Below are positions 4,984 through 52,067 of a stretch of DNA of 64,000 bases, piece after piece. Source of the DNA: Gammaproteobacteria bacterium (GTDB lineage: Bacteria > Pseudomonadota > Gammaproteobacteria > Eutrophobiales > Eutrophobiaceae); the NCBI GenBank assembly GCA_965240365.1, contig OZ251218.1, positions 3,022,378 to 3,086,377 on the forward strand, given 5' to 3'. A model generated the notes under the pieces. It saw only the letters and a list, made by a program, of their open reading frames with translations, did no database searches and was not told where the DNA came from. Both the position numbers and the translations under genes were made by a program. The stretch's first letter is position 1. The number at the start of each line of letters is the position of its first letter.

Positions 4984-5971
4984 TATACCTCCTTTGTTGT
5001 AATTCCAGTAAGTGTCCGGGTTCAATACCCAGGGTCATCTCATCTAAAATAAGGTGTCAGTTATCCTAGCCACGGTATCTTTAAGTATTGCTCATAATGC
5101 GCCTATTGCCCCCACCGTCATTTATGGACAGGAAGTCCTGTATGCGGCGACCTGCCTGCTGCAGGCAGGGAGGGCACGCCTACAAGGATGTACGCCTACA
5201 GGGACGTAGGTGGTAGAGCGGCGTCTGGAACAAGCCGCCGAGGTGGTAGAGCGGCGCCTGCCTGCAGCAGTCCGGATGAGATGGCCACCTCTTGTTGCGC
5301 GGCGTCTGAAGCGCCAAAATGAAGTTTTTACTTAACCTAAATGCACAAAAGAGGTGTCCGAGATGAAAGTGACTCTAATTGGTATTGATTTGGCAAAGAC
5401 TATTTTTCAGGTATGTGGAGTGAATCAGGTCGGCAAGCCGGTGTTTAACCGGACGATACGGCGTGCGGGTCTGTTGTCCTTTGTGAGCCGTTACCCGGAT
5501 TCGGTAGCCTGCCTGCAGCAGGCAGGTGGCGATGGAGGCGTGCGGGGGGTCGAATTACTGGGGACGTGAGTTGCAGAAGCGGGGCTATGAGGTGAAGCTG
5601 ATTCCGCCGCAGCATGTGAAGCCGTTTGTAAACCTGCCTGCAGCAGGCAGGGGGGAACAAGACCGACCGTCATGATGCTCTGGCGATTTGTGAGGCGGCC
5701 GGTCGTCCTGAGTTGCGGTGTGTTATGCCTCGCAGTGTTGAGCAGACTGACCGGCTGCTGGCGCACCGGCTGCGCCCTGCCTGCAGCAGGCAGGGAGCAG
5801 GCCGTAGGCGGGCGTACCCGGTTGGTGAATCAAATTCGGGGGTTGTTGCGGGAGTATGGCGTGGTGGCCTGCCTGCAGCAGGCAGGTGGCCCGTCGCTAT
5901 CTCGGCATGCCGTGGGCCGAGTGGCAGGCGCTGGATGCGCGTATTGCGGAGTTGGAGGAAGATACTAGTAA

Positions 5972-7063
5972 TTGCATAAGTATTCGCAGTGCATTATAAT
6001 TTGCTGCCATGAGCACAAGAATTGAATTACGTAATCAGAAACGCAAAGATGTTGTTGAAGCAATCGTTATCCGCCAAGAACCTGTTCATTTAGTTCGGCG
6101 GATATACAACCTGCCGGAACGCACGGTTTTCGACTGGCTGTCACGTTATCGGGCCGGCGGATGGGATGCGCTCAAGGAGGGCAAGCGTAGCGGCCGCCCC
6201 AGAAAGCTCAGCGCTGAGGACATGCAGTGGGTTTATAAGGCGGTGACAATGGGCAACCCGATGCACTATCAGTTTGATTTTTGTCTTTGGACTCTGGGCG
6301 TGTTAGGCACCCTGATCAAGCAAGCACGCGGTGTCAAGCTGAGCAAGAGCGCCATTAGTCGCTTATTGAGGCATCTGGGGTTGAGCGCGCAACGTCCGGT
6401 CTACAAGTCGTATAAGCAAGACCCGAAGCAGGTCAAGCGCTATCTTTCCAAGACGTTTCCTGAGGCCGTGGCACAAGCGAAGGCGATGGGCGCGCAACTG
6501 TTCTTTGTTGATGAGGCTTCGGTACGTAGTGATGCGCACCGGGGCGCCACCTGGGGCAAGCGAGGCGAGACACCGGTTATCAGAGACAGCGGTGGACGTT
6601 TTGGGCTTAATATGATGAGTGCCATTTCTCCACGGGGGGAGATGCGTTTCAGTTTCATTGCGGGAGGTATGAACTCAAGCCGGTTTATCCAGTTTCTAAA
6701 AAAGCTCCATAAGGATGCCGGCAAGCCCATTTTGGTCATCGTTGATAACGCCAAATATCACTACAGTAAGGAAACACGGCGCTTCCTTAAGCAACAAGAC
6801 GGCCAGATTTTGCTGACTTTCCTGCCAGCGTACTCACCGGAACTCAATCCTGATGAACAGGTTTGGAATCATGCCAAACACCAACTCAGTCAACGCCCTG
6901 TCTGGGATAAACACGATATGAAAAGGCACTTGTCAGCTATTTTGCATTCTCTTCAGAAACGCACGGGCTTGATCATGAGCTTCTTCAAAATGAAAAATAC
7001 GAAATATATCCTGGAAGTCTTCATATGAACTGCGATTATTTATGCAAGGATTAATATTAAGGC
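5972..7063 (+). mobile_element. IS630-family element nested in IS110 copy 1
   Basis: Imperfect terminal inverted repeats ...ATTGCATAAGTATTCGCAGT / ACTGCGATTATTTATGCAAGG...; inserted at a TA dinucleotide present once in uninterrupted IS110 copy 2. Confidence 0.6.
6009..7028 (+). CDS. IS630-family transposase
   Basis: 339 aa; HTH N-terminus and DDE region (FFVDEASV...VIVDNAKYH...YSPELNPDE). Confidence 0.85.
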   Translation: MSTRIELRNQKRKDVVEAIVIRQEPVHLVRRIYNLPERTVFDWLSRYRAGGWDALKEGKRSGRPRKLSAEDMQWVYKAVTMGNPMHYQFDFCLWTLGVLGTLIKQARGVKLSKSAISRLLRHLGLSAQRPVYKSYKQDPKQVKRYLSKTFPEAVAQAKAMGAQLFFVDEASVRSDAHRGATWGKRGETPVIRDSGGRFGLNMMSAISPRGEMRFSFIAGGMNSSRFIQFLKKLHKDAGKPILVIVDNAKYHYSKETRRFLKQQDGQILLTFLPAYSPELNPDEQVWNHAKHQLSQRPVWDKHDMKRHLSAILHSLQKRTGLIMSFFKMKNTKYILEVFI

Positions 7064-7410
7064 TCAGGTCAAGCAGGATGAGTCGGCGCGGCGTCTGGCG
7101 GGTATCAAGGGGGTGGGCCACTGATTGCCAGTGCGGCCGCCTGCCTGCAGCAGGCAGGCCACTATGCGGCCAATCTGGGACTGGTGCCCAGAGAGCACTC
7201 CAGTGGCGGCCGCCAACGGCTGGGAGGGATTACCAAACAGGGTAACCAGTATCTGCGCCGCCTGCTCGTCCAGGGGGCCTGGTCGGTCTTGCGCTATGCC
7301 GACCGCAGTGAAGACCGGCTGTCACGTTGGGCCAGACAGGTCACCTGCCTGCTGCAGGCAGGTGGCTCGCATCGGCAAGCATAAGGCGGCGGTGGCCGTG
7401 GCCAACAAGC

Positions 7411-7429
7411 CCTGCCTGCTGCAGGCAGG
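7411..7429. repeat. 19-bp hairpin copy present in IS110 copy 1 only
   Basis: copy1 CAAG-CCCTGCCTGCTGCAGGCAGG-TGGCCCGC vs copy2 CAAAC-TGGCCCGC (44296 region). Confidence 0.8.
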
Positions 7430-7567
7430 TGGCCCGCATCATCTGGTCAATGCTGTATCACGGCGCCGAGTACCGGCCGGCTTGAGACACGCGCACCGGC
7501 CCGTTTGAGGCAGAAGTAGAACGTACCCACCATAGGTTGCGATGAAGATATGAAGTAACAGCTTAGA

Positions 7568-7670
7568 CCTGCCTGCAGCAGGCAGGCCGGCCCCTGAAAC
7601 GCTGACTTACCTGCCTGCAGCAGGCAGGCCGGCCCCTGAAACGCTGACTTACCTGCCTGCAGCAGGCAGG
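7568..7670 (+). repeat. Tandem array (2.5 x 42 bp) of hairpin + 23-bp spacer inside IS110 right end
   Basis: Unit CCTGCCTGCAGCAGGCAGGCCGGCCCCTGAAACGCTGACTTA repeated at 7568, 7610, 7652(partial); copy 2 has a single unit. Confidence 0.7.
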
Positions 7671-7887
7671 CCCGACTGGGCTGAAAAGCACGAAGGCACG
7701 ATAGAGCGACAGGGGCGCGGTTCTCATTGAGGCCCGGGGACAATGATTCCCCAACACAGAGGCCGGATAGTCGTATGCAGTCTTATTTTACCGTTATTGA
7801 ATAATCAGCTTGCAAACTACGAGGTGTACATATAGGCCGAAATAACAGAGCGGATTGCCGGCAGTCTGTTTTTCATATACTCCCCGC

Positions 7888-17491: not shown

Positions 17492-18865
17492 CTATACCAC
17501 CAGCTCTTGGACCAAATCCCATCTGTCGTGGATAATTTGAGGAGAATGGGTCGCGATAATCACCTTCATTTTCTTAATCTCTTGAATCTTTTGCAGATCA
17601 GAGATGAAATTTTTTTGCCACGCAACATGCAATGACAGCTCTGGCTCATCTACGAGAATCAAAGAATACTCTTCTACTTTGAAGAGTAAGTCGTAGATGA
17701 GCACAAGTTCATGTTGCTCGCCCGATGAAAGATCCGAGAGCGGAATTCCAGCGCCCGTGTTACTGTCTTCAGCTCTGATACCTCTTTTGGGATCAATCGC
17801 AATCTTCTTGAAAGAAAAATGCTCATCCAGAATTTGCTTGAAGAGCCTGATCTTGGCATAGGCTTCATCGAAGATGCCGAGCTTCTTTTCGGTATCTTCG
17901 ACATATATTGCAAGAATTCTTCGGATGCTCTCTTCTTGAAAGATGTCTGAAGGTTGAATTGATTCGCTAATCGTTTGTCCTAGAAGTCCGACAGACACAA
18001 GATCATCTCGTTTTTGGGTCAATTCTTGAAGACTCTCACGAATTTCTGATTCGTCACTGACAGGTTCAGCACGAAATTCAATTATCCTTTTGGGAAAAGT
18101 CTGGTCGAGTTTTTGCGATTCGTTTGCATACTCCTGAAGCAGTCTGCCAATCCTCTCAGCAAGATCAGTTGCGTCTTTTTCCACAACAGGCGGTGGAGTA
18201 AAACGTGCATACCTTCTAGGGCGTCGGTTATCCTCCTGCTCCTCAAGATAAAGCAAACGTTACGTCTCAATCAGATGAGTATCGACAGACGCAATCGCGT
18301 CTTGAAGCCACTCCGGAAGTTTCAATGAATCAAGAAGTTTTTGAGGTAGTCGGTCAGCATATAGCTCGATGATCTGATCTGTTGCAAAGGTTCTACCTTG
18401 ATGGAAGTCATGCCAAAGATCAGGTCCGATCTGTTCTACCGGAAAGCGATGTTCAAAGTATCTCAAATCCGGCAACGAAAAATCTGCAGCAAGCAAATAT
18501 AGCTCTTTGTCAGCGCCAAAACCAGTTGCCTTAATCGACACAGCCCTTTTTTCTCTAATCTCCTCACTATCAATGAGACCACCTTCATCCTTAAGAATTG
18601 ATATTTGCTTTCCAGAAGATAGCTGAAACACGATTTTTTCAAAACTGATCTTCTGGAAGAAACCAAGTTTCCGATTAAAAAACGAGTCTATAATTCTGAG
18701 CAGAACCGTTTTGCCATAACCGTTTGGGGCAGTGATTATTGACACATATTCCTCTTCACCAAATCTCAATTTGTAGTTAAAACGCCGAAATAGGTTTCGA
18801 ACAGTAAGTGACAAGAGTTGCTCTGGTTTCTGGCCATTGATCATTTTGTTGCTCATTTCTCGCAC
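17492..18865 (-). pseudogene. AriA-like ABC/AAA_15-21 ATPase interrupted by in-frame TAA
   Basis: Walker A ITAPNGYGKT (N-half 18263..18865), ABC signature LSDLSSGEQ, Walker B LILVDEPELSLH, H-loop IIATHSP (C-half 17492..18256); both halves in one frame separated only by TAA at 18260..18262. Confidence 0.65.
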
Positions 18866-29872: not shown

Positions 29873-30456
29873 TCAATACTCTCTATCAAATATCTGTTTT
29901 TTCTGGTTTTTGTTTTCCTGAAAGGCCGCGAGCGCGCCCGCTTTAACCAGTTCGATGCAACACTGGAAGCGAAGCTCCCTGGAGATCGTATTCTGCAAAT
30001 CCGTCACCAACCGACCTCTTTCCTCAACCTCCATAGGTCCCGACAACTCGACCCTGACCGGCAAGGGAGGGTCCTGAACCGGCGGAGGGGATTTTAAGAC
30101 CACGCGGGCGTTTCCGGTAAGGCCACGATCGGCGAACCGCTGGATCAGGGCCTGAATCGCACTGGGGAAAACGTTAACCCCACGAACGAGGAGCATGTCA
30201 TCGGTTCGCCCCTGAACGAGAAAACGAATTGTATCGCGCCCGCAGGCGCAACGCCCGAGCCGGATCAGGTACCTGTCTCCAGTACGAAAGCGTATGGCAG
30301 GGGCGCATTCCTTTTCGAGAGCAGTGTAGACAGCTTCTCCGCAAACACCGTCTTCCATCGGAAGAGCCTCCCCGGAGGCCGGATCGATGATCTCCAGATG
30401 TGCTATTTCCTCGGTCAGAAAATGCAATCCTGAGTTATGTTCACAACGTGGATTCA
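29873..30456 (-). pseudogene. Phenylacetate-CoA ligase-like (PaaK family), C-terminal part
   Basis: ...GLHFLTEEIAHLEIIDPASGEALP...GRTDDMLLVRGVNVFPSAIQ; separated from N-part by IS30 insertion. Confidence 0.6.
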
Positions 30457-31387
30457 ACCAGCAAGAGCAACATTAGGATTGATTCCGAAAAATACCTGAT
30501 TAGGTGTTTTCATGCCAAGGCATTTTCGAGGTCGGTTATTTAATTTATCCATAGCCATTTTAATCTCCTGTTCAGTGATGGTGGTAAAGTCTCTGTTCCT
30601 GGGGAAGTATTGGCGTATCAGGCCGTTGGTATTTTCGTTGAGTCCGCGTTGCCAGGAGGCATAGGGGTGAGCGAAATAAAAGGTCGCATTGAGCGCTTTG
30701 GCAATGGCCTGATGGCGCGCAAACTCCCTGCCGTTGTCAGAAGTCAGGGTATGGACATTATCAGACAAGGGAGCAAGCTGTTGCAAAATAGCGGCCTTGA
30801 CCGTATCCGCTTCCTTGCTGGCGACCCTGGCAATCAACGTCAGGCGCGACTTACGCTCAGTCAGGGACACGAGGGCCTGTTTGTGCCCCTTGCCAATAAT
30901 CGTATCCAATTCCCAACCTGCCTGCTGCAGGCAGGTCACCCAATCGGGCACGTCTGTCGACGATGGCGGGTCGCTCATCAATGGAAACGCGGCCAGACCA
31001 CTGGCCACGGCGGCTAAAGTGACCGTAGCGCTTCCTGCGCCGCTTCTGGCAACGCAGGCGACGGTACAGGTCGCCGCCTTGCTGTTTGTCCCGCAGAATA
31101 TAGCGATAAATCCACTCATGGCTAATCCGAAGGCGCTTTTCCTGAGCCAGCCAGAGGCTGACCTGTTCCGGGCTCCAGTCCTCACGCAGCAAGGCTTCAA
31201 CCCAGTCCCAATGGCCGGGTTGAATGCGCACCTTAGCCTTTCCCTGCCGGCGGGTCACGGCCAGCCGTTCGGCCTGCTGCGGACGATAGCCGCAGAGGCC
31301 ACGGTTGCGCCTCAACTCACGGCTTATGGTGGATTTGTGAACCTCAAGGATACGGGCTGTCTCAGTTTGATTATGGCCTGCTTTCAT
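30454..31387 (-). pseudogene. IS30-family transposase (frameshifted)
   Basis: MKAGHNQTETARILEVHKSTISRELRRNRG... HTH, C-terminal ...LNENTNGLIRQYFPRNRDFTTITEQEIKMAMDKLNNRPRKCLGMKTPNQVF; two overlapping ORFs. Confidence 0.65.
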
Positions 31388-31558
31388 AAGGGCGCCTGCC
31401 TGCTGCAGGCAGGTAAATCGGGTATCGTTGCTCCTGGGTGAGCTGTGTGTATTGTCTCATCGATGCTTCTCATTCTTGCCAGAACAAAAAGCAGAGATAC
31501 TACCGCAGCTCGCCTCCTGTTCCGAGTTATGAGTTGCACTTACGAGTTGAATTCACGC
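30457..31558 (-). mobile_element. IS30-family element copy 1 inserted in paaK-like gene
   Basis: Imperfect terminal IRs GTGGATTCAACCAGCAAGAGCAAC... / ...GAGTTGCACTTACGAGTTGAATTCACG; transposase (30454..31387) frameshifted, 2 hairpin copies inside. Confidence 0.6.
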
Positions 31559-32325: not shown

Positions 32326-32410
32326 TGCGTCCTCCAGAACCGCCAGCCCATACCTTTGGTTGACTGACTACGAAGCTTGTGACATAAAATAATAAATATC
32401 ATACTAAAAT

Positions 32411-33760
32411 TCATTGCTGTCCCATTAACAGGGAATAAAAAGGCCTGATTCCACTGAGATTGATATAATGAGTTTGCTAAAAAACGCTGTATCAATAAGG
32501 AGAATCAGGCCGTGGCACATTGTAATACGATTTTTTCACAAATACTAAAGTTTGTTCCGAGACATGAATTTGAATCTCTGGCGAAGCGGCATCACTTGGG
32601 TCGGGCGTTCCGGAAAACTTCGCGTTGGCCTGCCTGCTGCAGGCAGGTCGCAATTTGTGTGGATGGCGATGGCACAATTGTCTGGCCGAATCAGTCTGCG
32701 CGATATTGTGGACAATCTTTCGGCACAGGCCCATCGTTTGTATCATCCAGGCAGTTCGAAGCCATCACATTCTACCTTGGCACGTCTTAACGAAGAGAAG
32801 CCCCATGCGCTTTATGAAGCCCTGTTTGGGAAGTTACTGAGTCGCTGTCAATGTGTTGCTCCGGGGTATAATTTTCGCTTCAAGAATCCGCTGTATTCAT
32901 TGAATGCGTCGATGATTGACCTGTGTCTCGCGGTATTTCCATGGGCGGATTTTCGAACGAGCAAAGGCGCCATTAAGCTGCATATTGGTTTAAACCATCG
33001 GGGTTATTTACCGGAATTTGTGACGATTACGGAAGGGAAAACGCACGACCTGCCTGCAGCAGGCAGGTAAAATGGTCGGTAGGACATTGCAATTTCCAAA
33101 GGGCAGTATTGTGGCAGTGGACCGCGGTTACAATTACTACAGCTGGTATAAGCAACTGAATGCTAAAGGTATCTTTTTCGTAACCCGCTTGAAGTCGAAT
33201 GCGAAGGTGCGTGTTGTTGCGCGCCGACCTGCCTGCTGCAGGCAAGTGTGTGGTCAAGCAGAGGAATGTGACGAGTGACCAGACGATCAAATTCACGGGA
33301 GTGCGTGCCCAAAAGAGGTGTCCGATTGGATTACGTCGAATCGGTTACCGGGAGCCAGTAACGGGCAAACGTTACGTGTTTCTGACGAACAATTTCAAGC
33401 TGTCGGCACAGACGATAGCGGATATATATAAATCACGCTGGCAGGTTGAATTGTTTTATAAATGGGCCTGCCTGCTGCAGGCAGGTCAAGCAAAATTTGA
33501 AGATCAAGGCGTTTATGGGCACGAGTAAGAATGCGGTGTTGACCCAGATATGGATTGCAATGTGTGTTTACTTGTTGCTGGCGTATTTGAAGTTTCAATC
33601 AAAGGTAACGAGAAGCTTGCAACAAATTCTGCGATTGCTACAACTGAATTTGTTCGAGAAACGCGATCTGACCGCCTTGCTTAACGGTGACCCACCCCAG
33701 ACACGCTGGGAAACTGATCGTCAAATAACACTGCTATGAAAGTTAATGGGACAGCAGTGA
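32411..33760 (+). mobile_element. IS4-family element
   Basis: 18-bp terminal IRs CATTGCTGTCCCATTAAC (32411) / GTTAATGGGACAGCAGTG (33743); transposase carries 4 hairpin insertions. Confidence 0.65.
32512..33739 (+). pseudogene. IS4-family DDE transposase broken by four 19-bp hairpin insertions
   Basis: ...VAVDRGYNYYSWYKQLNAKGIFFVTRLK...YKSRWQVELFYKW...GTSKNAVLTQIWIAMCVYLLL; hairpins at 32629, 33049, 33228, 33467 each shift the frame. Confidence 0.65.
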
Positions 33761-33871
33761 CTAAAATTATAATAAATACGACGTCAATAAAAAATAATTG
33801 TGACATCAATGTCAAATTTGTCGACGGACACGGGAGGAAACAGAATGTCGCCGCGATTGAAAAAAGCCTTA

Positions 33872-34748
33872 GGGCGTAGACCTATAAACAAGTAACAGTT
33901 AAAATGGCGGCAAGATAAAAAACTCAGGAGGTTTCAATGTCTCTAAATTTCTGGTTAACGAAAGAGCAGTTCAAAAAAATCCAACCATTGCTACCGAACA
34001 AGCCGCGTGGCGTTGCCCGCGTGTGCGATAGACAAGTCTTGTCAGGCATCATCTATTGTCTTCAGCGGGGATATAGGTGGAGTGATGTTCCCGAGGAATA
34101 CGGCCCGGCCAAGACGCTCTACAATCGCTACAGGCGCTGGTCTGAGGCGGGTGTGTTCGAACGCATATTCAAGGCTTTAGCAGGTGAGGGCGCAGACTTC
34201 AGCACGCTGATGATTGACACGAGCCACATCAAAACCCACCGGATTGCCGCCAATGGTGTAAAAAAAACAACAGTCAGGGGCGAGCCATCGGCAAGACCAG
34301 GGGTGGCTTGAATTCCAAACTGCATCTGGTGTGCGATGGTCAGGGCCGCCCTGTCCATCTGCACCTGACGGCGGGCAACCGGGCTGACCTGCCTGCAGCA
34401 GGCAGGTATTACCCAGGCCCGTCACTGCCTTGAGGGTCATGTGCGTAAGGGCTGCACCGTTATTGCCGACCGTGGATACGATGCCAATCATCCCTGCCTG
34501 CTGCAGGCAGGTGCGTAACTGGCTGCTCAAGGCCGAAGCAACAGCCTGCATCCCACCCCGCAAAAACCGTAAGGTGCAGTTCGAATACGACACCGAGCTC
34601 TATAAAACACGCAACATCATTGAGCGCATGTTCAACCGCATCAGGGACTGGCGCCAGTTGTCCCTTCAAACCTTCCGATGTCCCGAGACGTTCCTCGCTG
34701 CCGCACAACTCGCTGCTATTGTGATCTGGTTATTATGAGTCTACGCCC
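33872..34748 (+). mobile_element. IS5-family (IS427/IS1031-type) element, copy A of tandem dimer (877 bp)
   Basis: IRs GGGCGTAGAC / GTCTACGCCC; orfA 33937..34311 + A8 slippery run + orfB; carries two hairpin copies (34388, 34493). Confidence 0.65.
34493..34511. repeat. 19-bp hairpin copy present in IS5 copy A only
   Basis: copy A AATCAT-CCCTGCCTGCTGCAGGCAGG-TGCGTAACT vs copy B AATCACC-TGCGTAACT. Confidence 0.8.
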
Positions 34749-34750
34749 TA

Positions 34751-35608
34751 GGGCGTAGACCTATAAACGGGTAATAGGTAGAATGACTGTAAGATAAAAA
34801 ACTCAGGAGGTTTCAATGTCTTTAAATTTCTGGCTGACGGAAGAACAGTTCAAAAAAATCCAACCATTGCTACCGAACAAGCCGCGTGGCGTTGCCCGCG
34901 TGTGCGATAGACAAGTCTTGTCAGGCATCATCTATTGTCTTCAGCGGGGATATAGGTGGAGCGATGTTTCCGAGGAATACGGCCCGGCCAAGACGCTCTA
35001 CAATCGCTACAGGCGCTGGTCTGAGGCGGGTGTGTTCGAACGCATATTCAAGGCTTTAGCAGGTGAGGGCGCAGACCTCAGCACGCTGATGATTGACACA
35101 AGCCACATCAAAACCCACCGGATTGCCGCCAATGGTGTAAAAAAAACAACAGTCAGGGGCGAGCCATCGGCAAGACCAGGGGCGGCTTGAATTCCAAACT
35201 GCATCTGGTGTGTGATGGTCAGGGCCGCCCTGTCCATCTGCACCTGACGGCGGGCAACCGGGCTGACCTGCCTGCAGCAGGCAGGTATTACCCAGGCCCG
35301 TCACTGCCTTGAGGGTCATGTTCGTAAGGGCTGCACCGTTATTGCCGACCGCGGATACGATGCCAATCACCTGCGTAACTGGTTACTCAAAGTCAAAGCA
35401 ACAGCCTGCATCCCACCCCGCAAAAACCGCAAAGTGCAGTTCGAATATGACACCGAGCTCTATAAAACACGCAACATCATTGAGCGCATGTTCAACCGCA
35501 TCAGGGACTGGCGCCAGTTGTCCCTTCGAACTTTCCGATGTCCCGAGACGTTCCTCGCTGCCGCACAACTCGCTGCTGTTGTGATCTGGTTATTATGAGT
35601 CTACGCCC
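34751..35608 (+). mobile_element. IS5-family (IS427/IS1031-type) element, copy B of tandem dimer (858 bp)
   Basis: Same IRs; separated from copy A by TA; 19 bp shorter than copy A because it lacks the second hairpin. Confidence 0.65.
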
Positions 35609-35691
35609 TAGTGAGCCCGCTGCTCTTGAGAGACCTCCGCGACTGCGCGTGCTCTAAATCCAGCACGATCTCTCAAACACACTAGGAGTTT

Positions 35692-41849: not shown

Positions 41850-42018
41850 GTTTCTCTCCTCAATTCTCGGTCAAAGCTTTGATTGTTCGTGACCTTATTA
41901 TTAACGGTTCAAAACGTTTCACAGGGCTTATAATATGTCAACTGATAAATTATTATTTCATCTAATGACTTATTCTGATGCGTTGTGAAACGTCAATATG
42001 CTGCCCATATCATATGGC

Positions 42019-42500
42019 GTGGATTCAACCAGCAAGTGCAACATTAGGATTGATTCGGAAGCTCTGAATAAATCCATCCTGGACTTACCTGCCTGCAGCA
42101 GGCAGAGCTTCAAAATCAATGACTTACGTCATTAATTTTGGCGGTACGTCCCTGTGCCGCAGGAAGCTCTGATTCAATCAGAGCTTCCGTTCCGAAAAAT
42201 ACCTGATTAGGTGTTTTCATGTCAAGGCATTTTCGGGGTCGGTTATTTAATTTATCCATAGCCATTTTAATCTCCTGTTCAGTGATGGTGGTAAAGTCTC
42301 TGTCCTTGGAGAAGTATTGGCGTATCAGGTCGTTGGTATTTTCGTTGAGTCCACCTGCCTGCAGCAGGCAGGCGTTGCCAGGAGGCATAGGCCTGCCCGC
42401 TGCAGGTGGGGGTGGGCGAAATAAAAGGTCGCATTGAGTGCTTTGGCAATGGTCTGATGGCGCGCAAACTCCCTCATGGACCCCGATGTGCTGGCCAAAC
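42019..42500 (-). pseudogene. IS30-family copy 2, 3' fragment with a 136-bp MITE-like insert
   Basis: IR GTGGATTCAACCAGCAAGTGCAAC; insert 42057..42192 bounded by GGAAGCTCTGA direct/inverted repeats; two extra hairpins at 42354 and 42392 absent from copy 1. Confidence 0.55.
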
Positions 42501-42789
42501 AATCGTGTGATGCGCGTAGCAAAGGTTAGATGCTGTCTCTCAATGACGTTTCCGATGGGCTGTCTGCCCTCGCGGCCCCTATTCTCAATACGAAAGGGGA
42601 CTTAATTGCGGCCGTTTCGCTTGGGGGGCTGACCCCGCAGATAGATACGGGATCACCACCTGATTTGCTGGCACCGCTGTTGGATTGCACCCGTGCTCTG
42701 AGTGCGTTCTACCAGAGTCAGGGGGATAATCTTCCGCTATAGTTCACTTAATGAAATTATAATTGCATATTGACATATTTTCGATGCAC

Positions 42790-43268
42790 TCCTAAATTCT
42801 TACGTGAATTCAACTCGTAAGTGCAACTCATGACTCGGAACAGGAGGCGAGCTGCGTTAGTATCTCTGTTTTTTGTTCTGGCAAGAATGAGAAGCATTGA
42901 TGAGACAAAATACACACAGCTCACCCAGAGGAGCAACGATACCCGATTTACCTGCCTGCAGCAGGCAGGCGCCCTTATGAAAGCAGGTCATAATCAAACT
43001 GAGATAGCCCGTATTCTTGAGGTTCACAAATCCACTATAAGCCGTGAGTTGAGGCGCAACCGTGGCCTGCGCGGCTATCGTCCGCAGCAGACTGAACAGT
43101 TGGCCGTGACCCACCTGCCTGCATTGCCAGAAGCGGCGCAGGAAGCGCTGCGGTCCTTTAGCCGCCGTGGCCAGTGGTCTGGCCGCGTTTCCATTGATGA
43201 GCGACCCGCCATCGTCGACAGGCGTGCCCGATTGGGCGACCTGCCTGCAGCAGGCAGGATGAGATGGT
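42790..43268 (+). pseudogene. IS30-family copy 2, 5' fragment (opposite orientation), truncated by IS110
   Basis: MKAGHNQTEIARILEVHKSTISRELRRNRGLRGYRPQQTEQLAVT...; ~190-bp internal deletion replaced by half-hairpin (43113..43123); ends at hairpin 43250..43268 where IS110 copy 2 begins. Confidence 0.55.
43250..43268. repeat. 19-bp hairpin abutting IS110 copy 2 left end
   Basis: CCTGCCTGCAGCAGGCAGG|ATGAGATGG; the equivalent hairpin (mutated arm) abuts copy 1 at 5257..5275. Confidence 0.8.
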
Positions 43269-44665
43269 CACCTCTTGTTGCGCGGCGTCTGAAGCGCCAA
43301 AATGAAGTTTTTACTTAACCTAAATGCACAAAAGAGGTGTCCGAGATGAAAGTGACTCTAATTGGTATTGATTTGGCAAAGACTATTTTTCAAGTGTGTG
43401 GAGTGAATCAGGCCGGCAAGCCGGTGTTTAACCGGACGATACGGCGTGCGGGGGTTCGAATTACTGGGGACGTGAGTTGCAGAAGCGGGGCTATGAGGTG
43501 AAGCTGATTCCGCCGCAGCATGTGAAGCCGTTTGTAAACCTGCCTGCAGCAGGCAGGGGGGAACAAGACCGACCGTCATGATGCCCTGGCGATTTGTGAG
43601 GCGGCCGGTCGTCCTGAGTTGCGGTGTGTTATGCCTCGCAGTGTTGAGCAGACCGACCGGCTGCTGGCGCACCGGCTGCGCCCTGCCTGCAGCAGGCAGG
43701 GAGCAGGCCGTAGGCGGGCGTACCCGGTTGGTGAATCAAATGCGGGGGTTATTGCAGGAGTATGGCGTGGTGTTGCCCAGGGGAAGGGGGCGCTGGAAAC
43801 GGGCGCTGCCGGCCTTGCTGGAAGACGGTGAGCATGGCTTGACAGTTACCTGCCTGCAGCAGGCAGGGGGGCCGTCGCTATCTCGGCATGCCGTGGGCCG
43901 AGTGGCAGGCGCTGGATGTGCGTATTGCGGAGTTGGAGGAGGATATTAAGGCCTAGGTCAAGCAGGATGAGTCGGCGCGGCGTCTGACGGGCATCAAGGG
44001 GGTGGGGCCACTGATTGCCAGTGCGGCCGCCTGCCTGCAGCAGGCAGGCCACTATGCGGCCAATCTGGGACTGGTGCCCAGAGAGCACTCCAGTGGCGGC
44101 CGCCAACGGCTGGGAGGGATTACCAAACAGGGTAACCAGTATCTGCGCCGCCTGCTCGTCCAGGGGGCCTGGTCGGTCTTGCGCTATGCCGACCGCAGTG
44201 AAGACCGGCTGTCACGTTGAGCCAGACAGGTCACCTGCCTGCAGCAGGCAGGTGGCTCGCATCGGCAAGCATAAGGCGGCGGTGGCCGTGGCCAACAAAC
44301 TGGCCCGCATCATCTGGTCAATGCTGTATCACGGCGCCGAGTACCGGCCGGCCTGAGACACGCTCAGGCCCGTTTGAGACAGGAGTAGAACGTACCCACC
44401 ATAGGTTGCGATGAAGATATGAAGTAACATCTTAGACCTGCCTGCAGCAGGCAGGCCGGCCCCTGAAACGCTGGCTTACCCGACTGCAGCAGGCTTACCC
44501 GACTGGGCTGAAAAGCCCGAAGGCACGATAGAGCGACAGGGGCGCGGTTCTCATTGAGGCCCGGGGACAATGATTCCCCAACACAGAGGCCGGATAGTCG
44601 TATGCAGTCTTATTTTACCGTTACTGAATAATCAGCTTGCAAACTACGAGGTGTACATATAGGTC
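43269..44665 (+). mobile_element. IS110-family element copy 2 (transposase 43346..44340 disrupted)
   Basis: Left end ATGAGATGGTCACC directly after hairpin; same architecture as copy 1 but without IS630, with a different set of hairpins/deletions. Confidence 0.6.
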
Positions 44666-44733: not shown

Positions 44734-47588
44734 CTAATAAATCTGTTCAGCATCCTCCCCCCCGGCCAGAACAGGCACCCTGTCTTTCACCTTGTCCGAT
44801 CGCCGTGATGCGACCGGTTTAATCGGCCCCATATCAGCCTTCTTCAAATTAACCGCGCAGAACTTGAACTCGGGTATCTTGCCAAACGGGTCAAGCTCTT
44901 CATTGGTAATCAGATTGGCCGCGGCCTCGTTGAAGCTGAAGGGCATCATCACCACGCCCTCCAGGATATGTTCATCGGCGCGGGTGGCCACCGCGATACT
45001 GCCGCGGCGTGACTGGATCACGAGTTTGTCCCCGGTTGTGAGGCCGAATTTACGCAGATCTTTGGGGGTTGACCATGACGCACGGCCCCGGTTCCAGCGC
45101 GTCCAGCACCCGCGAATGGCGGGTCATTGTGCCCGTGTGCCAGTGTTCAAGCTGACGGCCGGTGACAAACACATAGGGGAAATCGCTGTCGGGCAGTTCG
45201 GCCGCTTCGGTGTATTCGGCCGGCACAAACCGGCCGCGGCCGTCCGCTGTCGGAAAGACGCCATCCTTGAATATCACCGGCTCGCCGGGATCGCCTTCTT
45301 TTTTCAAGGGATAAGTCAGCGAATCTTCCCGTTCCAGCCTGTCCCAGGTCATGCCGGCCATGCTGGGCACGGCCTTTCTGATCTCCGCGAAGACTTCCTC
45401 GGGGCCGGCATAGTCCCAGTCCAGGCCGATGCGCCTGGCCAGTTGCTGGATGATCCAGAGGTCCTGCCTGGCCTCGCCGGGCGGCTTGATGGCCTGCCGG
45501 CCGATTTGCACGCGCCGGTCGGTGTTGGTAAAGGTGCCTGTTTTTTCGGGGAAGGCCGTGGCCGGCAGGATGACATCCGCGTAGCTGCAGGTCTCGGTAA
45601 AAAATATGTCCTGAATCACGCAATGCTCAAGCCGGGCGAGGGCGGCCCGGGCATGGTGCAGGTTGGGATCGGACATGGCCGGGTTTTCACCCATGATATA
45701 CAAGCCCGTCAGATCGCCGTCATGGATGGCGTGCATGATCTCGACCACGGTCTTGCCCGGTTTCGGGTCCAGTTCCGCGCCCCCAAAGCTGCTCGAATTT
45801 TTCCCTGTTCCGGTCAACCGATACGGGCTGGTAGTCGGGGTAAACCATCGGGATCAGGCCCACGTCGGAGGCGCCCTGCACGTTATTCTGCCCGCGCAGC
45901 GGGTGCAGGCCGGTATTGGGCCGGCCGATCTGGCCGGTCAGCAGGGCCAGGGAAATCAGGCAGCGGGCATTGTCGGTGCCATGCGTATGTTGCGAGATGC
46001 CCATGCCCCAGAAGATGATAGCGCTCCCGGCCGTGGCATAGGTCCGGGCGATCTCCTTGATGCGTTCGGCCGCGACACCGCAGATCGGCGCCACCGCCTC
46101 CGGGCTGTACTTGAGCGCGGTTTCCTTGAGGGCTTCAAAGCCGTGTGTATGTTCAGCAATAAATTTTTGATTATGCAGCTTTTCGCTGATGATGGTGTGC
46201 ATCATCGCGTTTAATAACAATACATCCGTGCCGGGCCGAAGCTGAACCAGATAATTGTTGTGCAAATACATCTCGGAGCCGTAGGGTTCGATCAGGATCA
46301 GGCGGCTGCCCCGCTCAACGGCATTTTTCATAAAGGTCGCCGCGACCGGATGGTTATCGTTCGGGCGCGCGCCGATGACGATAATGACTTCCGCCCGGGC
46401 GCCGTCGGCGACCTGGTTGGACACCGCGGCCGAACCGATGGTCTCCAACAGCGCGGCGACGGAAGAGGCGTGACAAAGGCGCGTGCAGTGATCCACGTTA
46501 TTGGTGCCAAACCCGGCGCGCACCAGCTTTTGCACCAGATACGCCTCTTCATTGCTGCCCTTGGCGCAGCCAAAGCCGGCCAGCGCCCGCGGCCCCTGCT
46601 TATCCCGAATGCGTTTGAGGCCGCCGGCGGCAAAATCCAGCGCCTCGTCCCAGTCAGCTTCACGAAAATAGCGGGACACGTCCGCGGGCTTGATCAGGGC
46701 CGGCGTCTTGGCCGCGTCCCTGCGCCTGATCAGGGGCCGGGTCAGGCGATCCGAATGATGCACATAATCGAAACCGTAACGGCCCTTGACACACAAGCGG
46801 CTCTTGTTGGCCGGCCCGTCGCGCCCCTCGACATACTGAATCCGGTTGTTTTTGACATTAAAACTCAACAGGCAACCCACCCCGCAATAGGGACAGGCCG
46901 ATTCCACCTTTTTATCCGGCTTGACCAGGCCCACCTTGCCGGCCGGCATCAGCGCCCCGGTCGGGCACGCCTGCACGCATTCACCGCAGGCCACGCAGGT
47001 GCTCTCGCCCATCGGCGCGGCCATATCGAACACGATTTTTGATTTATTGCCGCGAAAGGCATAGCCGATCACGTTATTGACCTGTTCCTCGCGGCAGGCC
47101 CGGACACAGCGGGTGCATTGAATACAGGCGTCCAGATTGACGGCGATGGCCGGATGGGAGAGATCGGGTTCAAGCGGTTTGCGCTGTTCAAAGCGCGGCT
47201 TGTGAACCTTGAGCCGGCCCGCCCAGTAGTCCAGTTCCGATTGCAGGCGGTAAGGCGACTTGCCCTGCTCCGGCATATCGGCCAGCAATAGCTCAATGAC
47301 CATCTTCTGCGAGCGCAGCGCCCGTTCATTATTACTTTCGACCTTCATCCCCGCCGTCGGCTGCCGACAGCAGGAGGGCGCCAGCGCCCGTTCGCCTTCA
47401 ATCTCGACCATACAGGCGCGGCAATTACCGTCAGGGCGGTAGCCTTCCTTGTAGCATAAGTGAGGAATATCGATCCCGTTACGCTTTGCGGCCTGCAATA
47501 TCGTCTCTTCTTCATAGGCCAGGATGTCGCGGCCGTTGAGGCTGAAACGTGTGAGCGCGTCATACATGAACTTCGGATTTGCAGCCAT
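44734..47588 (-). CDS. fdsA: NAD-dependent formate dehydrogenase alpha subunit (FdsA); two apparent +1 frameshifts in G5 runs
   Basis: N-terminal 2Fe-2S/4Fe-4S (CYKEGYRPDGNCRACMVEIEG, CIQCTRCVRAC, CVACGECVQACPTGA), Mo-bisMGD domain (CPYCGVGC...HCTRLCHASS, Cys not Sec); three track ORFs (45720..47588, 45050..45817, 44734..45021) join if single G is removed at 45780..45784 and 45064..45068. Confidence 0.7.
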
Positions 47589-47713
47589 TTAGTCATACCT
47601 CCGAAAACAGCTTGTTTGAGTGGGCGCGGCCGGTAATTCCGTTGCGATGGGTCCGGTTTTGAGCGCGCGGGCGGCGTCACTATCCGGGCAAAAGACGGGT
47701 CGGGCCGGGCGCT

Positions 47714-49375
47714 TCATTTGAATTCCTGTGGAAAATACTTGATCGCGCAACGCAGCGGATTGGCCGCGGCCTGACCCAGGCCGCAGATAGAGGCGTCCTG
47801 CATGGCCCCGGCCAGTTCCAGCAGCAGTTCGGTATCCCATTCTTCGCGCTGCATCAGCCGCGCCGCCTTCTCCGTGCCGACCCGGCACGGCGTGCATTGA
47901 CCGCAGGATTCATGCTCGAAAAAACGCATGGCATTCAAGGCGGCGGCCCTAGCGCTGTCCTGGTCGGACAACACGATGATGGCGGCCGAGCCGATAAAGC
48001 AGCCATAGGGTTGCAGTGTGTCGAAGTCCAGCGGGATATTGTCCAGCGAGGCGGGCAGGATGCCGCCGGAGGCCCCGCCCGGGAAATAACCGTAGAATTC
48101 ATGTCCGACCAGCATGCCGCCGCAATATTCATCGATCAGTTCACGGATGGTGATCCCGGCCGGGGCCGGGTGTACGCCCGGTTTTTGCACGCGCCCGCTG
48201 ACGGAAAAGGAGCGCAACCCGGTGCGATCATGCCGCCCGTGGCGCGTGAACCAGCGCGCCCCGTTTTCGATGATGGCCCGGACCCAGTACATGCTTTCCA
48301 TGTTCTGTTCCAGGGTCGGGCGGCCAAACAGCCCGACCTCGGCCACGTAGGGCGGGCGTAATCTGGGCATGCCGCGCTTGCCTTCAATGGACTCGATCAT
48401 GGCCGATTCCTCGCCGCAGATATAGGCCCCCGCGCCGCGGCGCAGATGGATCTCCGGCAGATCACAAGGCGGATCCCGCGCCAGCAGTTCAAGCTCCCGT
48501 TCAAGCATCTTGCGGCAACCGGCATACTCATCCCGCAAATACAGATAAATCCTGTCGGCCTCAATGGCCCAGCGCGCGATCAAGGCGCCTTCAAGGAAGC
48601 GATGCGGGTCGCGTTCGAGATAATAGCGATCCTTAAAGGTGCCGGGTTCGCCTTCATCAATATTGATCGCGATCATGCGCGGTCTGGCCTGTTTGCTCAG
48701 GATGCGCCACTTTTTGCCGGTCGGGAAACCGGCGCCGCCCAGCCCCCGCAGATTCGAGTCTTCCAGTATCGAGATGATCTGCTCGCGTGAATAGTCGCCC
48801 CGAATACATTTCAACAATGTTTCATAACCGCCTTTTGCGCGGTATTCGGCATAGCCGGTGCAGGCGGGCGGGGAATCTTCAAAGTGGTTTTGATCAATGG
48901 CCGTCCTTATTTTGTCCAGATCAGCATGCTCAATCGGCCGGGTGCCGGCCACGGCCACGGGCGCAGCCGGGCAGCGGCCCACGCAGGGCACGGGCTGGAT
49001 ACGGACATTATCGAAATTTTCCGACTGAAGCCGCCGGATGAGTTGTTTGGCGCCGAACATCTCGCAGGTGACGGAATCACAGACGCGCACGGTACGGGGC
49101 GGGGGCGGCGGGTCATTTTCCCGCAGGACATCAAAATGATGATAAAAGGTGGCGGTTTCGTAGATTTCCGCCACGGGCAGGCTCATTTCCAGCGACAGGG
49201 CCTGTATATTGCGGCTGGAGATGGCGTGATAGCGGTCCTGGATTTTATGCAGATGCTCAATCAGAAACTCGCGGTCGCGCGGCGCGTCACCCAGCAGGGC
49301 CTTGATTTCCGCAACGGACTCGTGCGGAATAGTGCGGCCCTTGAGGCGGCCTTTTTTTCCTCTGGTGCGTTTCAT
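47714..49375 (-). CDS. fdsB: NAD-dependent formate dehydrogenase beta subunit (NuoF-like with NuoE-like N-terminus)
   Basis: 553 aa; NADH/FMN site GLRGLGGAGFPTGKKW, 4Fe-4S ESCGQCTPCRVG. Confidence 0.85.
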   Translation of the reverse strand: MKRTRGKKGRLKGRTIPHESVAEIKALLGDAPRDREFLIEHLHKIQDRYHAISSRNIQALSLEMSLPVAEIYETATFYHHFDVLRENDPPPPPRTVRVCDSVTCEMFGAKQLIRRLQSENFDNVRIQPVPCVGRCPAAPVAVAGTRPIEHADLDKIRTAIDQNHFEDSPPACTGYAEYRAKGGYETLLKCIRGDYSREQIISILEDSNLRGLGGAGFPTGKKWRILSKQARPRMIAINIDEGEPGTFKDRYYLERDPHRFLEGALIARWAIEADRIYLYLRDEYAGCRKMLERELELLARDPPCDLPEIHLRRGAGAYICGEESAMIESIEGKRGMPRLRPPYVAEVGLFGRPTLEQNMESMYWVRAIIENGARWFTRHGRHDRTGLRSFSVSGRVQKPGVHPAPAGITIRELIDEYCGGMLVGHEFYGYFPGGASGGILPASLDNIPLDFDTLQPYGCFIGSAAIIVLSDQDSARAAALNAMRFFEHESCGQCTPCRVGTEKAARLMQREEWDTELLLELAGAMQDASICGLGQAAANPLRCAIKYFPQEFK

Positions 49376-50352: not shown

Positions 50353-51174
50353 TCAACGAGGTTGCAATATCAATATCTCCCCCTTCCCATTCAGGGCCAG
50401 ATCGCCGCTATAACGGTGTGCGACCGGCTGTTGCCGGCTGAATAACGCCAACTCGCCGCCCATATTCGCCAATTGGGTAAATAACAGGCGCAGAAACTGC
50501 ATTTTCAGATGACCGCAGCTTTTGAAGGTGGCGGACAGGCTGGCCGGTTTTTTGGCGAGTATCAGGCTGCCCCGGCGCATCCCGGCGGCCGGGTAGCGGC
50601 CGGCCTTGTCGAGGATAATCACCGTGCCGGCATGCATACGGCTGGCGCAATAGTCGCCCGCCTTGCCGCGGATGATAATGATCCCGCGCCGCATGCGATC
50701 CGCCACGCGATCACCGGCGCGGCCGCCGATATTTATCATGCCGCCGCTCATGCCAAACAAATCCCCCGGCCGTCCGGCGCCGGCATAGTCCCCGGCATTG
50801 CCGTCTATATCAATCCGCCCGCCGGCCAGCCCGCTGCCCGCCCAGGCCCCGGCGTCGCCCCTGACGCGGATACATCCGCCCGCCATGCCCCGGCCGAGCA
50901 AATCACCCACGTCGCCTTCCACCTCGATGCCGCCGCTTTGCATCCCCTGGCCCACGCCGCTCAATTTGTCACAGCTTTTTGCTATCTTGATCCGGCCGCC
51001 GGGCCGCCCCGTGAGCTTAAATAAATCCGCAACGCGGGCCGTTTCTCCGCCGTAAACCAGCCTGATGCCTTTGATCGCGGCCAGTGTCTGGCCTGCCAGC
51101 TTATCCGGTGTCAGCACCGACATATCCAGCCGGTATTGCGGCGCGTGTTTCAGGCTAAGGGTCAGCGCCGTCAT
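50353..51174 (-). CDS. fhcC: Formyltransferase/hydrolase complex subunit C (FwdC-like)
   Basis: 273 aa; tandem GxxGxxxG beta-helix repeats. Confidence 0.8.
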   Translation of the reverse strand: MTALTLSLKHAPQYRLDMSVLTPDKLAGQTLAAIKGIRLVYGGETARVADLFKLTGRPGGRIKIAKSCDKLSGVGQGMQSGGIEVEGDVGDLLGRGMAGGCIRVRGDAGAWAGSGLAGGRIDIDGNAGDYAGAGRPGDLFGMSGGMINIGGRAGDRVADRMRRGIIIIRGKAGDYCASRMHAGTVIILDKAGRYPAAGMRRGSLILAKKPASLSATFKSCGHLKMQFLRLLFTQLANMGGELALFSRQQPVAHRYSGDLALNGKGEILILQPR

Positions 51175-52067
51175 TTTAACAACGCCCGCAGATGGAACAG
51201 ATGCGGCCCCAGATGCCCGCCATAGTGGCCCGCGCTGATGCGATAAATGCCTTTGGCGGGGCCAAACGAGCAGGCGGCGCGAATCCCGGCGCGCATTGCC
51301 CTGTTGATGGCCGCCTCGTCAAGACCGTCAATCACGATCTCAAGCACCGAGCCGATCTCGGGGCTTAACGCCGTTTTAACCTGTCCCTTGAGGGTAGGGC
51401 AGTAGGCCTCGTTGGTTGAAGCCGTGAGGAATTTATATTTTGAGCCGACTTTTGAGCCGGAACCGACCACCCCGCCGGGGAAGGCCGTGATCACGCCCGG
51501 CACCTGGCGGATGGCGGCAACGGCCTTTTCACAGGCCGCGAGGCCATGCCGGGCGGTTTTGGCCAGCACCAGAAAATTACCGCCGCCGATGGCGCCGGTC
51601 ACGCCGGTGGATTCTTCACAGATAAATTCGCCGTGCATGACCGGGATCCGCCAGTAACGCCGGCCATTAATGAGCTTTGAAATCTGGTAGCCGTCGCCGA
51701 AAAAACGCAGGTGTTTGCCCATGGGGATCTGTTTTTCACTGTCGAGGCCGGAGTAGCAGGCCGTGGTGGCCGTGGTCATTACCGACTGCCCGACCCGCGT
51801 GGGCACCTGTTTTTCCAGATCTTTGGTGGACATGGTAAACAGCATGACCGCGATGCCCGGCCGCCCGTCCGGGGTCTCGGCCGGTTTTAATTCCCGCTCA
51901 ATATCGGCCTCAATGCCGCAGGCGATGACCGAGGAGGCAAAACCGCGAATGGCATTGGCCGCCAGATAGGCCCATTTTAAGGTCATCGCGGTAATGATGA
52001 TGCGCGTGGCCTTCATCGGGAAGGCTTCGGCAAAGGTGTCATCAATGACTACGCCGTTGATCTTCAT
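51171..52067 (-). CDS. fhcD: Formylmethanofuran--tetrahydromethanopterin formyltransferase (Ftr-like) FhcD
   Basis: Start at MKINGVVIDDTFAEAF; ~298 aa typical Ftr. Confidence 0.85.
   Translation of the reverse strand: MKINGVVIDDTFAEAFPMKATRIIITAMTLKWAYLAANAIRGFASSVIACGIEADIERELKPAETPDGRPGIAVMLFTMSTKDLEKQVPTRVGQSVMTTATTACYSGLDSEKQIPMGKHLRFFGDGYQISKLINGRRYWRIPVMHGEFICEESTGVTGAIGGGNFLVLAKTARHGLAACEKAVAAIRQVPGVITAFPGGVVGSGSKVGSKYKFLTASTNEAYCPTLKGQVKTALSPEIGSVLEIVIDGLDEAAINRAMRAGIRAACSFGPAKGIYRISAGHYGGHLGPHLFHLRALLK

Follow-up and report, generated by a model that had tools for sequence, protein, structure and literature searches.

The 64,000-nucleotide stretch of gammaproteobacterial DNA analysed here (the window) carries at 33872..35608 two head-to-tail copies, A and B, of an IS5-family insertion sequence (IS), and copy A holds a 19-bp hairpin sequence that copy B lacks. 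The question raised by this locus is whether the hairpin was gained by A or lost from B, and what kind of unit it is. We found that the A/B difference at 34493 is one filled/empty polymorphism of a perfect 19-bp palindrome, CCTGCCTGC-W-GCAGGCAGG, here called HP, and comparison of filled and empty sites showed that each HP insertion adds exactly 19 bp and neither duplicates nor removes target bases. The IS5 "dimer" itself is ordinary, and the hairpin is the interesting object. Taken as a whole, our reading is that HP is a non-autonomous mobile micro-element similar to repetitive extragenic palindromes (REPs) and small dispersed repeats (SDRs), and that it broke both IS5 copies; we rate this somewhat above an even chance, and its descriptive part (the unit, the absence of duplication, the A/T-adjacent target and the polymorphism) as very likely.

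The features of the pair are as follows, with a caret marking an insertion junction.

33872..34748, plus strand: IS5-family copy A (877 bp), with hp1 and hp2 (sequence reading, pairwise alignment)
34751..35608, plus strand: IS5-family copy B (858 bp), with hp1 only (sequence reading, pairwise alignment)
34749..34750, no strand: TA dinucleotide common to A and B
33872..33881, plus strand: left terminal inverted repeat of A, GGGCGTAGAC
34739-34748, 34751-34760 and 35599-35608: right terminal repeat of A, left of B and right of B
34260..34267, plus strand: A8 run, putative -1 programmed frameshift site leading from orfA (33937-34311) into the DDE frame
35139-35146: A8 run in copy B, equivalent of 34260-34267
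34388..34406, no strand: hp1 in A, 19-bp palindrome, centre A, in GA^T of an Asp codon, breaking the frame
35267..35285, no strand: hp1 in B, site and centre base as in A
34493..34511, no strand: hp2, 19-bp palindrome, centre T, in C^TG of a Leu codon
35371..35372, no strand: empty hp2 site in B, …AATCACC^TGCGTAAC…

Copies A and B differ by a single 19-bp indel

A and B were aligned over their full lengths. With the hairpins stripped, they differ by 33 substitutions in 839 positions (96.1% identity, 3.9% diverged), and the sole indel between them is the 19-mer CCTGCCTGCTGCAGGCAGG at 34493-34511. The sequence-only reading had proposed that exactly one 19-bp indel separates the copies and that the second hairpin, at 34493, occurs in A alone of the pair; the alignment confirms both and shows that the indel is not part of a larger one. 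The substitutions are concentrated at the 5' end and directly after hp2. Among the coding differences, 18 are synonymous and 7 non-synonymous, a non-synonymous share with a probability of ~1e-6 under neutrality, and A, B and the further copies from sister strains are all mosaics. By these patterns, A and B evolved under purifying selection and are not the products of a recent duplication; both are diverged mosaic versions of a single IS5-family IS, with two frames each.

Both copies can be rebuilt into a transposase gene. Removing both hairpins from A, with a -1 slip at the A8 run, gives an intact 254-aa DUF4096 + DDE_Tnp_1 transposase, and copy B minus one 19-mer, with the same slip, gives an unbroken 254-aa protein with the same two domains (Pfam, 1.8e-22 and 3.1e-19, respectively). 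Homologues ~50% identical are annotated as IS5-family transposases, the closest named one being ISKpn12-like. Every plasmid homologue aligns as two separate pieces, which is what a two-frame gene would give, so orfA and orfB are probably joined by programmed -1 frameshifting at A8. The element may belong to the two-ORF (open reading frame), -1 frameshift IS5 subgroup such as IS427.

The head-to-tail layout through a TA dinucleotide and the lengths of 877 and 858 bp, as first described, are borne out on reading the sequence. Each copy is bounded by terminal inverted repeats GGGCGTAGAC / GTCTACGCCC (10/10 perfect, 14/16 if extended), and the pair is also bounded by TA on the left (33870-33871) and right (35609-35610). 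Related IS copies are flanked by CTAG, TTAG or CTAA (YTAG/CTAR-type sites), and the A/B target duplication is TA or YTAR-type, 2 bp versus 4 bp being ambiguous. Since the relatives have such flanks, an inserted copy recreates a CTAG where it ends, and when another copy enters the recreated TA the result is exactly the arrangement TA-A-TA-B-TA. The likeliest origin of the tandem is thus the insertion of a second copy into the TA/CTAG target at the end of the first. An active IS dimer, an (IS)2-type intermediate, is ruled out by the mosaic copies and their 33 differing sites. Predicted promoter-like sites lie wholly within each left end, and no junction promoter was predicted across the A/B boundary.

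Both hairpins are insertions, and the upstream base change is unrelated

To establish the ancestral state, the pair was compared with outgroups and with sister strains. The seven outgroup DNA copies (L107-L111, L113 and L114; 72-83% amino acid identity) have no hairpin anywhere, and protein relatives (72-81% identity) are uninterrupted at …TAGNRADITQAR… and …DRGYDANHLRDW…. Because the seven outgroups are without both, hp1 and hp2 are insertions relative to the ancestral IS. Removal of hp1 gives GA^T-ATT, as in the GAT-ATT of the relatives, and removal of hp2 gives CAC-C^TG; at both sites the target bases are neither duplicated nor deleted. The empty hp2 sequence of B is also found in outgroups L109 and L110, and the other outgroups are empty with nearby substitutions. 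The clean filled/empty pair originally taken to define a 19-bp inserted unit therefore holds, and the empty outgroups give its direction as insertion. The hairpin common to both copies had been placed at 34388/35277; the sharing and the first position stand, but the true start in B is 35267, a 10-base slip.

Sister strains were reached through a 98%-identical LigA in a European Nucleotide Archive (ENA) assembly, and an IS110 search gave copies 96-97% identical to those of the window in sister assemblies, a group that includes ERZ25067561, ERZ25067570 and ERZ25878402. The sister contigs are low-coverage long-read assemblies in which single-base indels are unreliable; a 19-bp perfect palindrome at one site in independent assemblies is not an error. 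These strains hold further copies of the IS5 element at two other genomic sites: L139, which is full length and lies inside an IS110 copy, and L136, which is truncated by an IS110 insertion. The hp1 site is occupied in 4/4 copies (A, B, L136 and L139). The hp2 site is occupied in A, L136 and L139, with one centre base throughout, and among the four copies is empty only in B. L139 also has two private hairpins in orfA. The presence of hp2 in copies elsewhere in the sister strains means that hp2 predates the present tandem or is independent of it. Together with the 3.9% divergence and mosaicism of A and B, the two sites L136 and L139 leave the earlier idea that the hairpin was inserted after IS duplication without support. 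Either hp2 never reached B, or B lost it, or the site in B was converted.

A base change 2 nt upstream of the hp2 junction, and a similar one at an IS110 site, had been proposed to accompany insertion. The differences are real: A has T (34491) and B has C (35370), and the A/G difference upstream in the IS110 pair, filled at 7411 with its counterpart near 44300 empty, was confirmed. The states at position -2 of hp2 are as follows.

CAT, filled: copy A and L136
CAC, filled: L139
CAC, empty: copy B and the other outgroups (L114 is without this region)
CAT, empty: L113

The proposed link to insertion fails on two copies: L139 has the hairpin and still reads C, and L113 reads T at an unoccupied site. 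The two "accompanying" changes (His CAC/CAT and Lys AAA/AAG) are synonymous third-position transitions; there is no flanking change at hp1 or at the IS110 sites S1-S3 described below, and the corresponding position of S4 differs between copies that are empty. A footprint of insertion is ruled out by these observations. C is ancestral at -2, and the C/T change is unrelated wobble variation, independent of insertion.

HP is a repeated unit of the window, mostly within IS genes

A search of the window gave 36 HP matches with up to 2 mismatches, compared with 0 in each of 100 shuffles. About 31 of the 36 lie in IS DNA, within IS reading frames, at up to 7-8 per element, and HP also occurs in intergenic repeats. 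None was found in the long intact housekeeping ORFs of the window, where ~40 kb of ordinary genes is HP-free. HP interrupts the transposase genes of six IS types, and exact deletion of the 19-mer restores their frames. The elements outside the IS5 pair that are referred to by position are as follows.

32400..33870, plus strand: IS4-like element (DUF4372 + DDE_Tnp_1), hairpins at 32629, 33049, 33228 and 33467
29873..31450, minus strand: IS30-like element (HTH_38 + rve), hairpins at 30917 and 31395
5276..7836, plus strand: IS110-family copy 1, interrupted by an IS630-like element (ORF 6009-7028); hairpins at 5508, 5633, 5776, 5868, 7140, 7344, 7411 and 7568-7670, with a degenerate HP at 5257-5275 directly 5'
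43259..44663, plus strand: IS110-family copy 2, directly 3' of the HP at 43240-43258

Stripping the four hairpins of the IS4-like element takes its frame from at most 173 aa to 399 aa, and stripping the two of the IS30-like element extends it from 266 to 325 aa. Stripping likewise lengthened the frames of the IS110-family, ISAs1-like and rve-type elements. Pfam confirmed the domains of the stripped elements, except for the rve-type fragment, whose HTH matches are below Pfam thresholds. In the IS4-like, IS30-like and IS5 genes the hairpins are the sole lesions. Three IS copies of the window are intact and HP-free: IS630-like elements at 6009-7028 and 15545-16642 and an IS1182-like element at 14112-15461. 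An assembly artefact is ruled out, as sites are also filled in independent assemblies and stripping restores frames. Rfam gave no match at the hairpins, its only matches in the window being two tRNAs, and a literature search did not find the exact 19-mer in any paper.

At 34-52, 55383-55401 and 63108-63126, HP, sometimes G/C-centred, is nested in intergenic palindromes of the type ATTCC(C/G)G…C(G/C)GGAAT. The same nesting was seen at several L125 sites and in L013, L022 and L082 (Ignavibacteriota, Thermodesulfobacteriota).

More than 10 exact filled/empty pairs define the unit and its target

More than 10 filled/empty HP sites come from IS copies that are nearly identical, in this genome and in the sister strains. 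IS110 copy 2 has most hairpin sites in common with copy 1, with the 7411 site empty. Across the window copies and the sister copies L126-L128, each of the sites S1 (5508), S2 (5633), S3 (5776), S4 (5868/43849), S6 (7344/44234), S7 (7411) and S8 (7568) is found both filled and empty, and every such difference is exactly 19 bp, without duplication. L127 and L128 have no internal hairpin, and the window IS110 copies have at least 7. The pattern at S7 is not explained by a simple tree. The intergenic repeat GGTAGAGCGGCG^TCAGGAAC (GGTAGAGCGGCG^TC(A/T)GGAAC…) is empty five times and filled once. At S4, the TGGCCCG flank at 5868 was considered as an ectopic conversion and rejected, because the sister copies show TGGCCCG to be ancestral and the GGGGCCG of copy 2 to be derived.

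Insertion is biased toward A and T. In 19 of 21 independent window events there is A at -1 or T at +1 (39% expected, P = 1.7e-6), and among one-sided events the centre base tends to match the flank, A with a 5' A and T with a 3' T (Fisher P = 0.03). Four of the IS110 sites share ^TGGC. Folding predicts that HP as single-stranded DNA forms an 8-bp stem at -8 kcal/mol and that the empty site is unstructured.

Each of the five IS110 copies that were compared directly adjoins the 3' side of an HP-type palindrome, and the left contexts are of at least three kinds. The centres of these left-end palindromes are CAG, TAC, CGG or degenerate (window 5257-7836 and 43240-44663; L126-L128; L125:8540). One repeat unit was seen in three states: unoccupied, holding HP alone, and holding HP together with IS110. 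These arrangements suggest that the IS110-family element uses HP as a landing site.

Several further observations concern the IS110 copies. At S6, the hairpin is T-centred at 7344-7362 in one IS110 copy and A-centred at 44234-44252 in the other, so either the centre can flip or two insertions took place at this site. At 7568-7670, at the 3' end of copy 1, a 42-bp unit (HP + CCGGCCCCTGAAACGCTGACTTA) forms 2.5 tandem repeats; the unit is single in copy 2 and the sister-strain copies, and copy 2 has a degenerate CCCGACTGCAGCAGGCTTA instead. In L126, one IS110 copy is inserted into an internal pseudo-target of another (CCCAGG^TCAAGCAGG). Hairpins also coincide with deletions: ~40 bp is replaced at 7140-7158 / 44030-44048 in both IS110 copies, 75 bp is lost directly left of 5868, and copy 2 has a 77-bp deletion spanning HP 5508 (5460-5536), between GGCGTGCGGG direct repeats. 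A scrambled rve-IS remnant at 42000-43260 has hairpins at its breakpoints.

HP is found in many phyla

The exact 19-mer was found in at least 106 loci of a species-representative genome set, where ~4 are expected (calculated for uniform base composition). The hosts include Bacteroidota, Ignavibacteriota, Acidobacteriota, Latescibacterota, Desulfobacteraceae, Brocadiaceae and Gammaproteobacteria, among others, and several metagenome-assembled genomes (MAGs) have multi-copy HP families. Removal of HP in L045, L046, L056 and L060 restores IS1380-like, IS256-like and IS1182-like transposases and a tyrosine recombinase, and the IS genes restored in this way include ones of Latescibacterota and Bacteroidetes. 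Most of the 112 other-genome copies are not in IS genes, and stripping restores an ORF for 8 of the 112. HP stands at the centre of a longer palindrome in ~19% of cases versus 4% in the control (about five times). Phage carriage of HP was rejected, as only 7 viral contigs have it.

In Desulfobacteraceae MAGs (loci L002, L009, L026, L027, L041, L061, L073, L088 and L104), HP centres long palindromes with two arm types, X and Y, arranged as X-HP-X', X-HP-Y' and Y-HP-X', and contigs often end there. This arrangement suggests a high-copy element that exchanges arms at HP. In an Algoriphagus MAG (L021, 640-1700), a Y1_Tnp gene (921-1475) similar to those of REP-associated tyrosine transposases (RAYTs) is flanked by GGCGCAAG…CTTGTGCC hairpin repeats, and HP is inserted in the loop of the upstream repeat, so that one tiny palindrome lies within the repeat of another system.

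HP resembles known micro-repeats without matching their definitions

REPs and REPINs, the latter having an inverted REP doublet as the mobile unit (PMC3116915), are short, abundant hairpin palindromes that are non-autonomous, are thought to be moved in trans by a RAYT (Y1/HUH), and serve as IS targets (PMC3116915, PMC3733652, PMC1525189). By definition a REP is an imperfect palindrome of 20-40 bp that bears a GTAG or CGTC tetranucleotide on one side (PMC3733652). The movement proposed for REPs is single-strand HUH/Y1 transposition (PMC3116915, PMC6006769), and IS200/IS605 elements transpose as single strands (PMC6006769). HP is REP-like in that it occurs in intergenic repeat mosaics and has an IS110-family element inserted beside it, comparable to REPs as IS targets (PMC1525189). 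Unlike a REP, HP has no GTAG/CGTC tag, its flanks are variable in the 36 window copies and 112 other copies, its palindrome is perfect and only 19 bp, its sequence is identical across many phyla, and most of its copies in this genome are within IS reading frames and not in extragenic DNA. Each HP filled/empty difference is a single 19-mer and not the inverted doublet of a REPIN, and neither the window nor the 106 loci gave a RAYT gene with HP as its cognate repeat, unlike a REPtron. A miniature inverted-repeat transposable element (MITE) has 70-300 bp, terminal inverted repeats and a target duplication, whereas HP is only 19 bp long, and none of its filled/empty sites, more than 10 in number, has a duplication. 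HP thus behaves like REP/SDR-type micro-repeats but fails the REP, REPIN and MITE definitions.

A similar behaviour is that of SDR4-6 of Nostocaceae, reportedly hairpin repeats of 21-27 nt found to be mobile by filled/empty comparison (Elhai et al. 2008), with the mechanism said to be unknown; they are also reported to lie often within other repeated elements. Compared by description, HP behaves similarly but is shorter, is a perfect palindrome and occurs in a gammaproteobacterium and many phyla, and it is documented inside transposase coding sequences. SDRs have been reported only from Nostocaceae (PMC5861425).

HP shares with the IS200/IS605 family the absence of target duplication, seamless junctions, a polarity toward a flanking base and the ability to form a hairpin. 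Members of that family insert without target duplication, through DNA hairpins, with seamless junctions and a polarity to the flanking base, and they have distinct left- and right-end hairpins, guide sequences and a 4-5-nt target. HP differs in being a single 19-nt hairpin with an A/T preference only and no linked Y1 gene. The dRS3 repeats of the Neisseria intergenic mosaic elements (NIMEs) are 20-bp palindromes of the type ATTCCC…GGGAAT that serve as landing sites for IS110-family recombinases; the window similarly has ATTCCCGC…GCGGGAAT repeats, some with HP nested in them, and an IS110 element landing beside HP. The HP sequence is different from dRS3 and shows a clean 19-bp filled/empty polymorphism, and insertion of dRS3 itself into coding sequences is not known. 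Fungal mitochondria have GC-rich palindromic clusters and "byp" elements, which are tiny mobile hairpins in genes and mobile elements whose mechanism is unresolved, and byp is translationally bypassed; unlike these organelle elements, HP shows no sign of translational bypass.

Proposed movement and alternative explanations

If HP is a mobile micro-element, a trans-acting enzyme would recognise its hairpin on single-stranded DNA and cut and join at the hairpin foot, in a movement akin to HUH/Y1 "peel-and-paste" transposition. Seamless hairpin insertion that leaves the target unduplicated is the hallmark of such single-strand transposition. This HUH-like mechanism is our best guess, offered by analogy, tentatively and at less than even odds. 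Filled and empty alleles would then be shuffled among paralogous IS copies by gene conversion, which is supported by the mosaic IS5 copies, and HP would build up in IS copies, which tolerate a 19-nt frameshift, and be purged from ordinary genes.

Several results weigh against reading HP as such an element. No mobilising enzyme was found: the window has no Y1/HUH gene by Pfam or by tblastn with approximate queries, and a Y1_Tnp gene lies near HP in 1 of 106 loci (L021), where HP is within that gene's own flanking hairpin repeat and does not itself form the repeat. Candidate RAYT or IS200 transposases near HP were dismissed, as tblastn with these approximate sequences gave nothing convincing. 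Known IS200/IS605 elements need a 4-5-nt target, and the preference of HP is for one base; the A/T rule is not evident among the HP copies in other phyla. By a rough count, the enrichment in IS DNA over other non-essential DNA is ~2-3 fold, so tolerance and targeting are inseparable. Finally, the frame-breaking hp1 is present in 4/4 copies, yet all six pairwise comparisons of these copies give ~2-2.5 synonymous changes per non-synonymous change, a purifying-type ratio that descent from one dead, hp1-bearing ancestor does not predict. The combination requires re-insertion at a hot spot, conversion between diverged functional copies, or retained function; spread of the filled allele by gene conversion is favoured because the copies are mosaic.

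Other explanations were weighed against the same data. The empty hp2 site of B might be secondary, with hp2 present in the ancestor of the four copies and lost from B by precise excision, which a cut-and-paste hairpin element would permit, or by conversion from an empty copy. We regard this as possible but doubtful. The occupation of hp2 in three of four copies of the IS subfamily, all with one centre base, agrees with such a loss, as do the mosaic copies, which indicate active conversion, and the misfit at S7. L139 carries hp2 on a largely B-like haplotype, matching B at 5 of 7 A/B-variable sites in 583-626 and equal to B at every base within ~19 nt of the junction, so like flanks are both filled and empty. 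Yet an empty B is also the simple ancestral state, as in every one of the seven outgroups; excision of HP was not observed directly, and the site is not flanked by direct repeats at which slippage could delete the hairpin precisely. It is far less probable that the solo hairpins are footprints of the IS110-family element, HP being its left end that stays behind when the body excises. The constant adjacency of the five IS110 copies to an HP-type palindrome and the three states of one repeat unit would fit, but the left-end palindrome centres differ far more than the 96-99% identical bodies, as fits a target and not element DNA. The solo HP sites are also very diverse, in contrast to the narrow targets of IS110-family elements, and none of the 106 other-genome HP loci has an IS110 relative.

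The concentration of HP in IS DNA could also mean that HP is directed at IS elements, either as a hyperparasite preferring IS DNA or transposition intermediates or as a host device inactivating transposases. The ~31 of 36 window copies in IS DNA, the density of up to 7-8 per element, the genes in which hairpins are the sole lesions, and a like pattern in the sister strains and among IS genes from other phyla argue for this. We nevertheless consider it decidedly unlikely, because three IS copies of the window are intact and HP-free, HP also lies in intergenic repeats, most other-genome matches are outside IS genes (8/112 restore an ORF), and selection against frameshifts in essential genes accounts for the bias with no need for targeting. 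The least probable of the alternatives, in our estimate, is that the hairpins leave transposase function intact by being removed or bypassed in expression or reversibly excised from the DNA. It would account for the excess of synonymous changes in 6/6 comparisons and for the lack of lesions other than hairpins in A and B. However, 19 nt is not a multiple of three; hp1 and hp2 have no take-off/landing codons or slippery sites, and translational bypass was rejected for want of matching take-off and landing codons. Because ~40 kb of ordinary window genes is HP-free, which is unexpected of a harmless insertion, we argue that HP is not harmless; the IS110 copies, L139 and L136 have further stops and deletions, and mosaicism is a simpler source of the selection signature. 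We retain the reading of HP as a REP/SDR-like micro-element. An improbable but bolder version is that HP is the smallest self-propagating DNA element yet described, moved by an unrecognised hairpin-specific enzyme and either homing into transposases or removed during expression. Homing, if true, would make HP a parasite of parasites or a host anti-IS device; removal during expression would explain hp1 in all sampled IS5 copies despite purifying selection.

The spread of REPs and SDRs has been debated for decades, largely since clean before/after sites are rare. Here, more than 10 exact 19-bp filled/empty pairs, together with the behaviour across phyla, define the mobile unit to the base, and these pairs, with no target duplication and a target bias, are natural substrates for biochemical and population-genomic tests. 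They also indicate that IS elements can be progressively disabled and rearranged by a far smaller element, which bears on IS annotation, pseudogene calls and genome plasticity in IS-rich bacteria.

Other features of the window

The window is chromosomal, with uvrC, pgsA, ligA, zipA, ccoG, TRAP transporters, formate dehydrogenase and Ftr/Fhc genes, and the two tRNA genes lie at 3323-3395 and 3461-3531, downstream of pgsA. Paralogous pairs of a GXGXG-motif protein and a formylmethanofuran:tetrahydromethanopterin (H4MPT) formyltransferase (Ftr) are found at 50353-52172 and 61971-63987, near subunits of a NAD-linked formate dehydrogenase (45720-49375). The Ftr and formate dehydrogenase genes point to a C1-metabolising gammaproteobacterium.

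A PARIS-like defence pair is encoded on the minus strand at 16675-18865, with AriB (DUF4435) at 16675-17484 and AriA (AAA_15/AAA_21) broken into two ORFs, 17492-18256 and 18260-18865. The pair lies in a 44-47% GC island (~16-20 kb), beside intact IS630-like and IS1182-like elements. The region 56116-61092 has 66-68% GC and a strong AT skew, with diverged tandem units of ~300 nt (57555-59535), and encodes ORFs of 1658 aa (minus strand; no Pfam domain) and 945 aa (plus strand).

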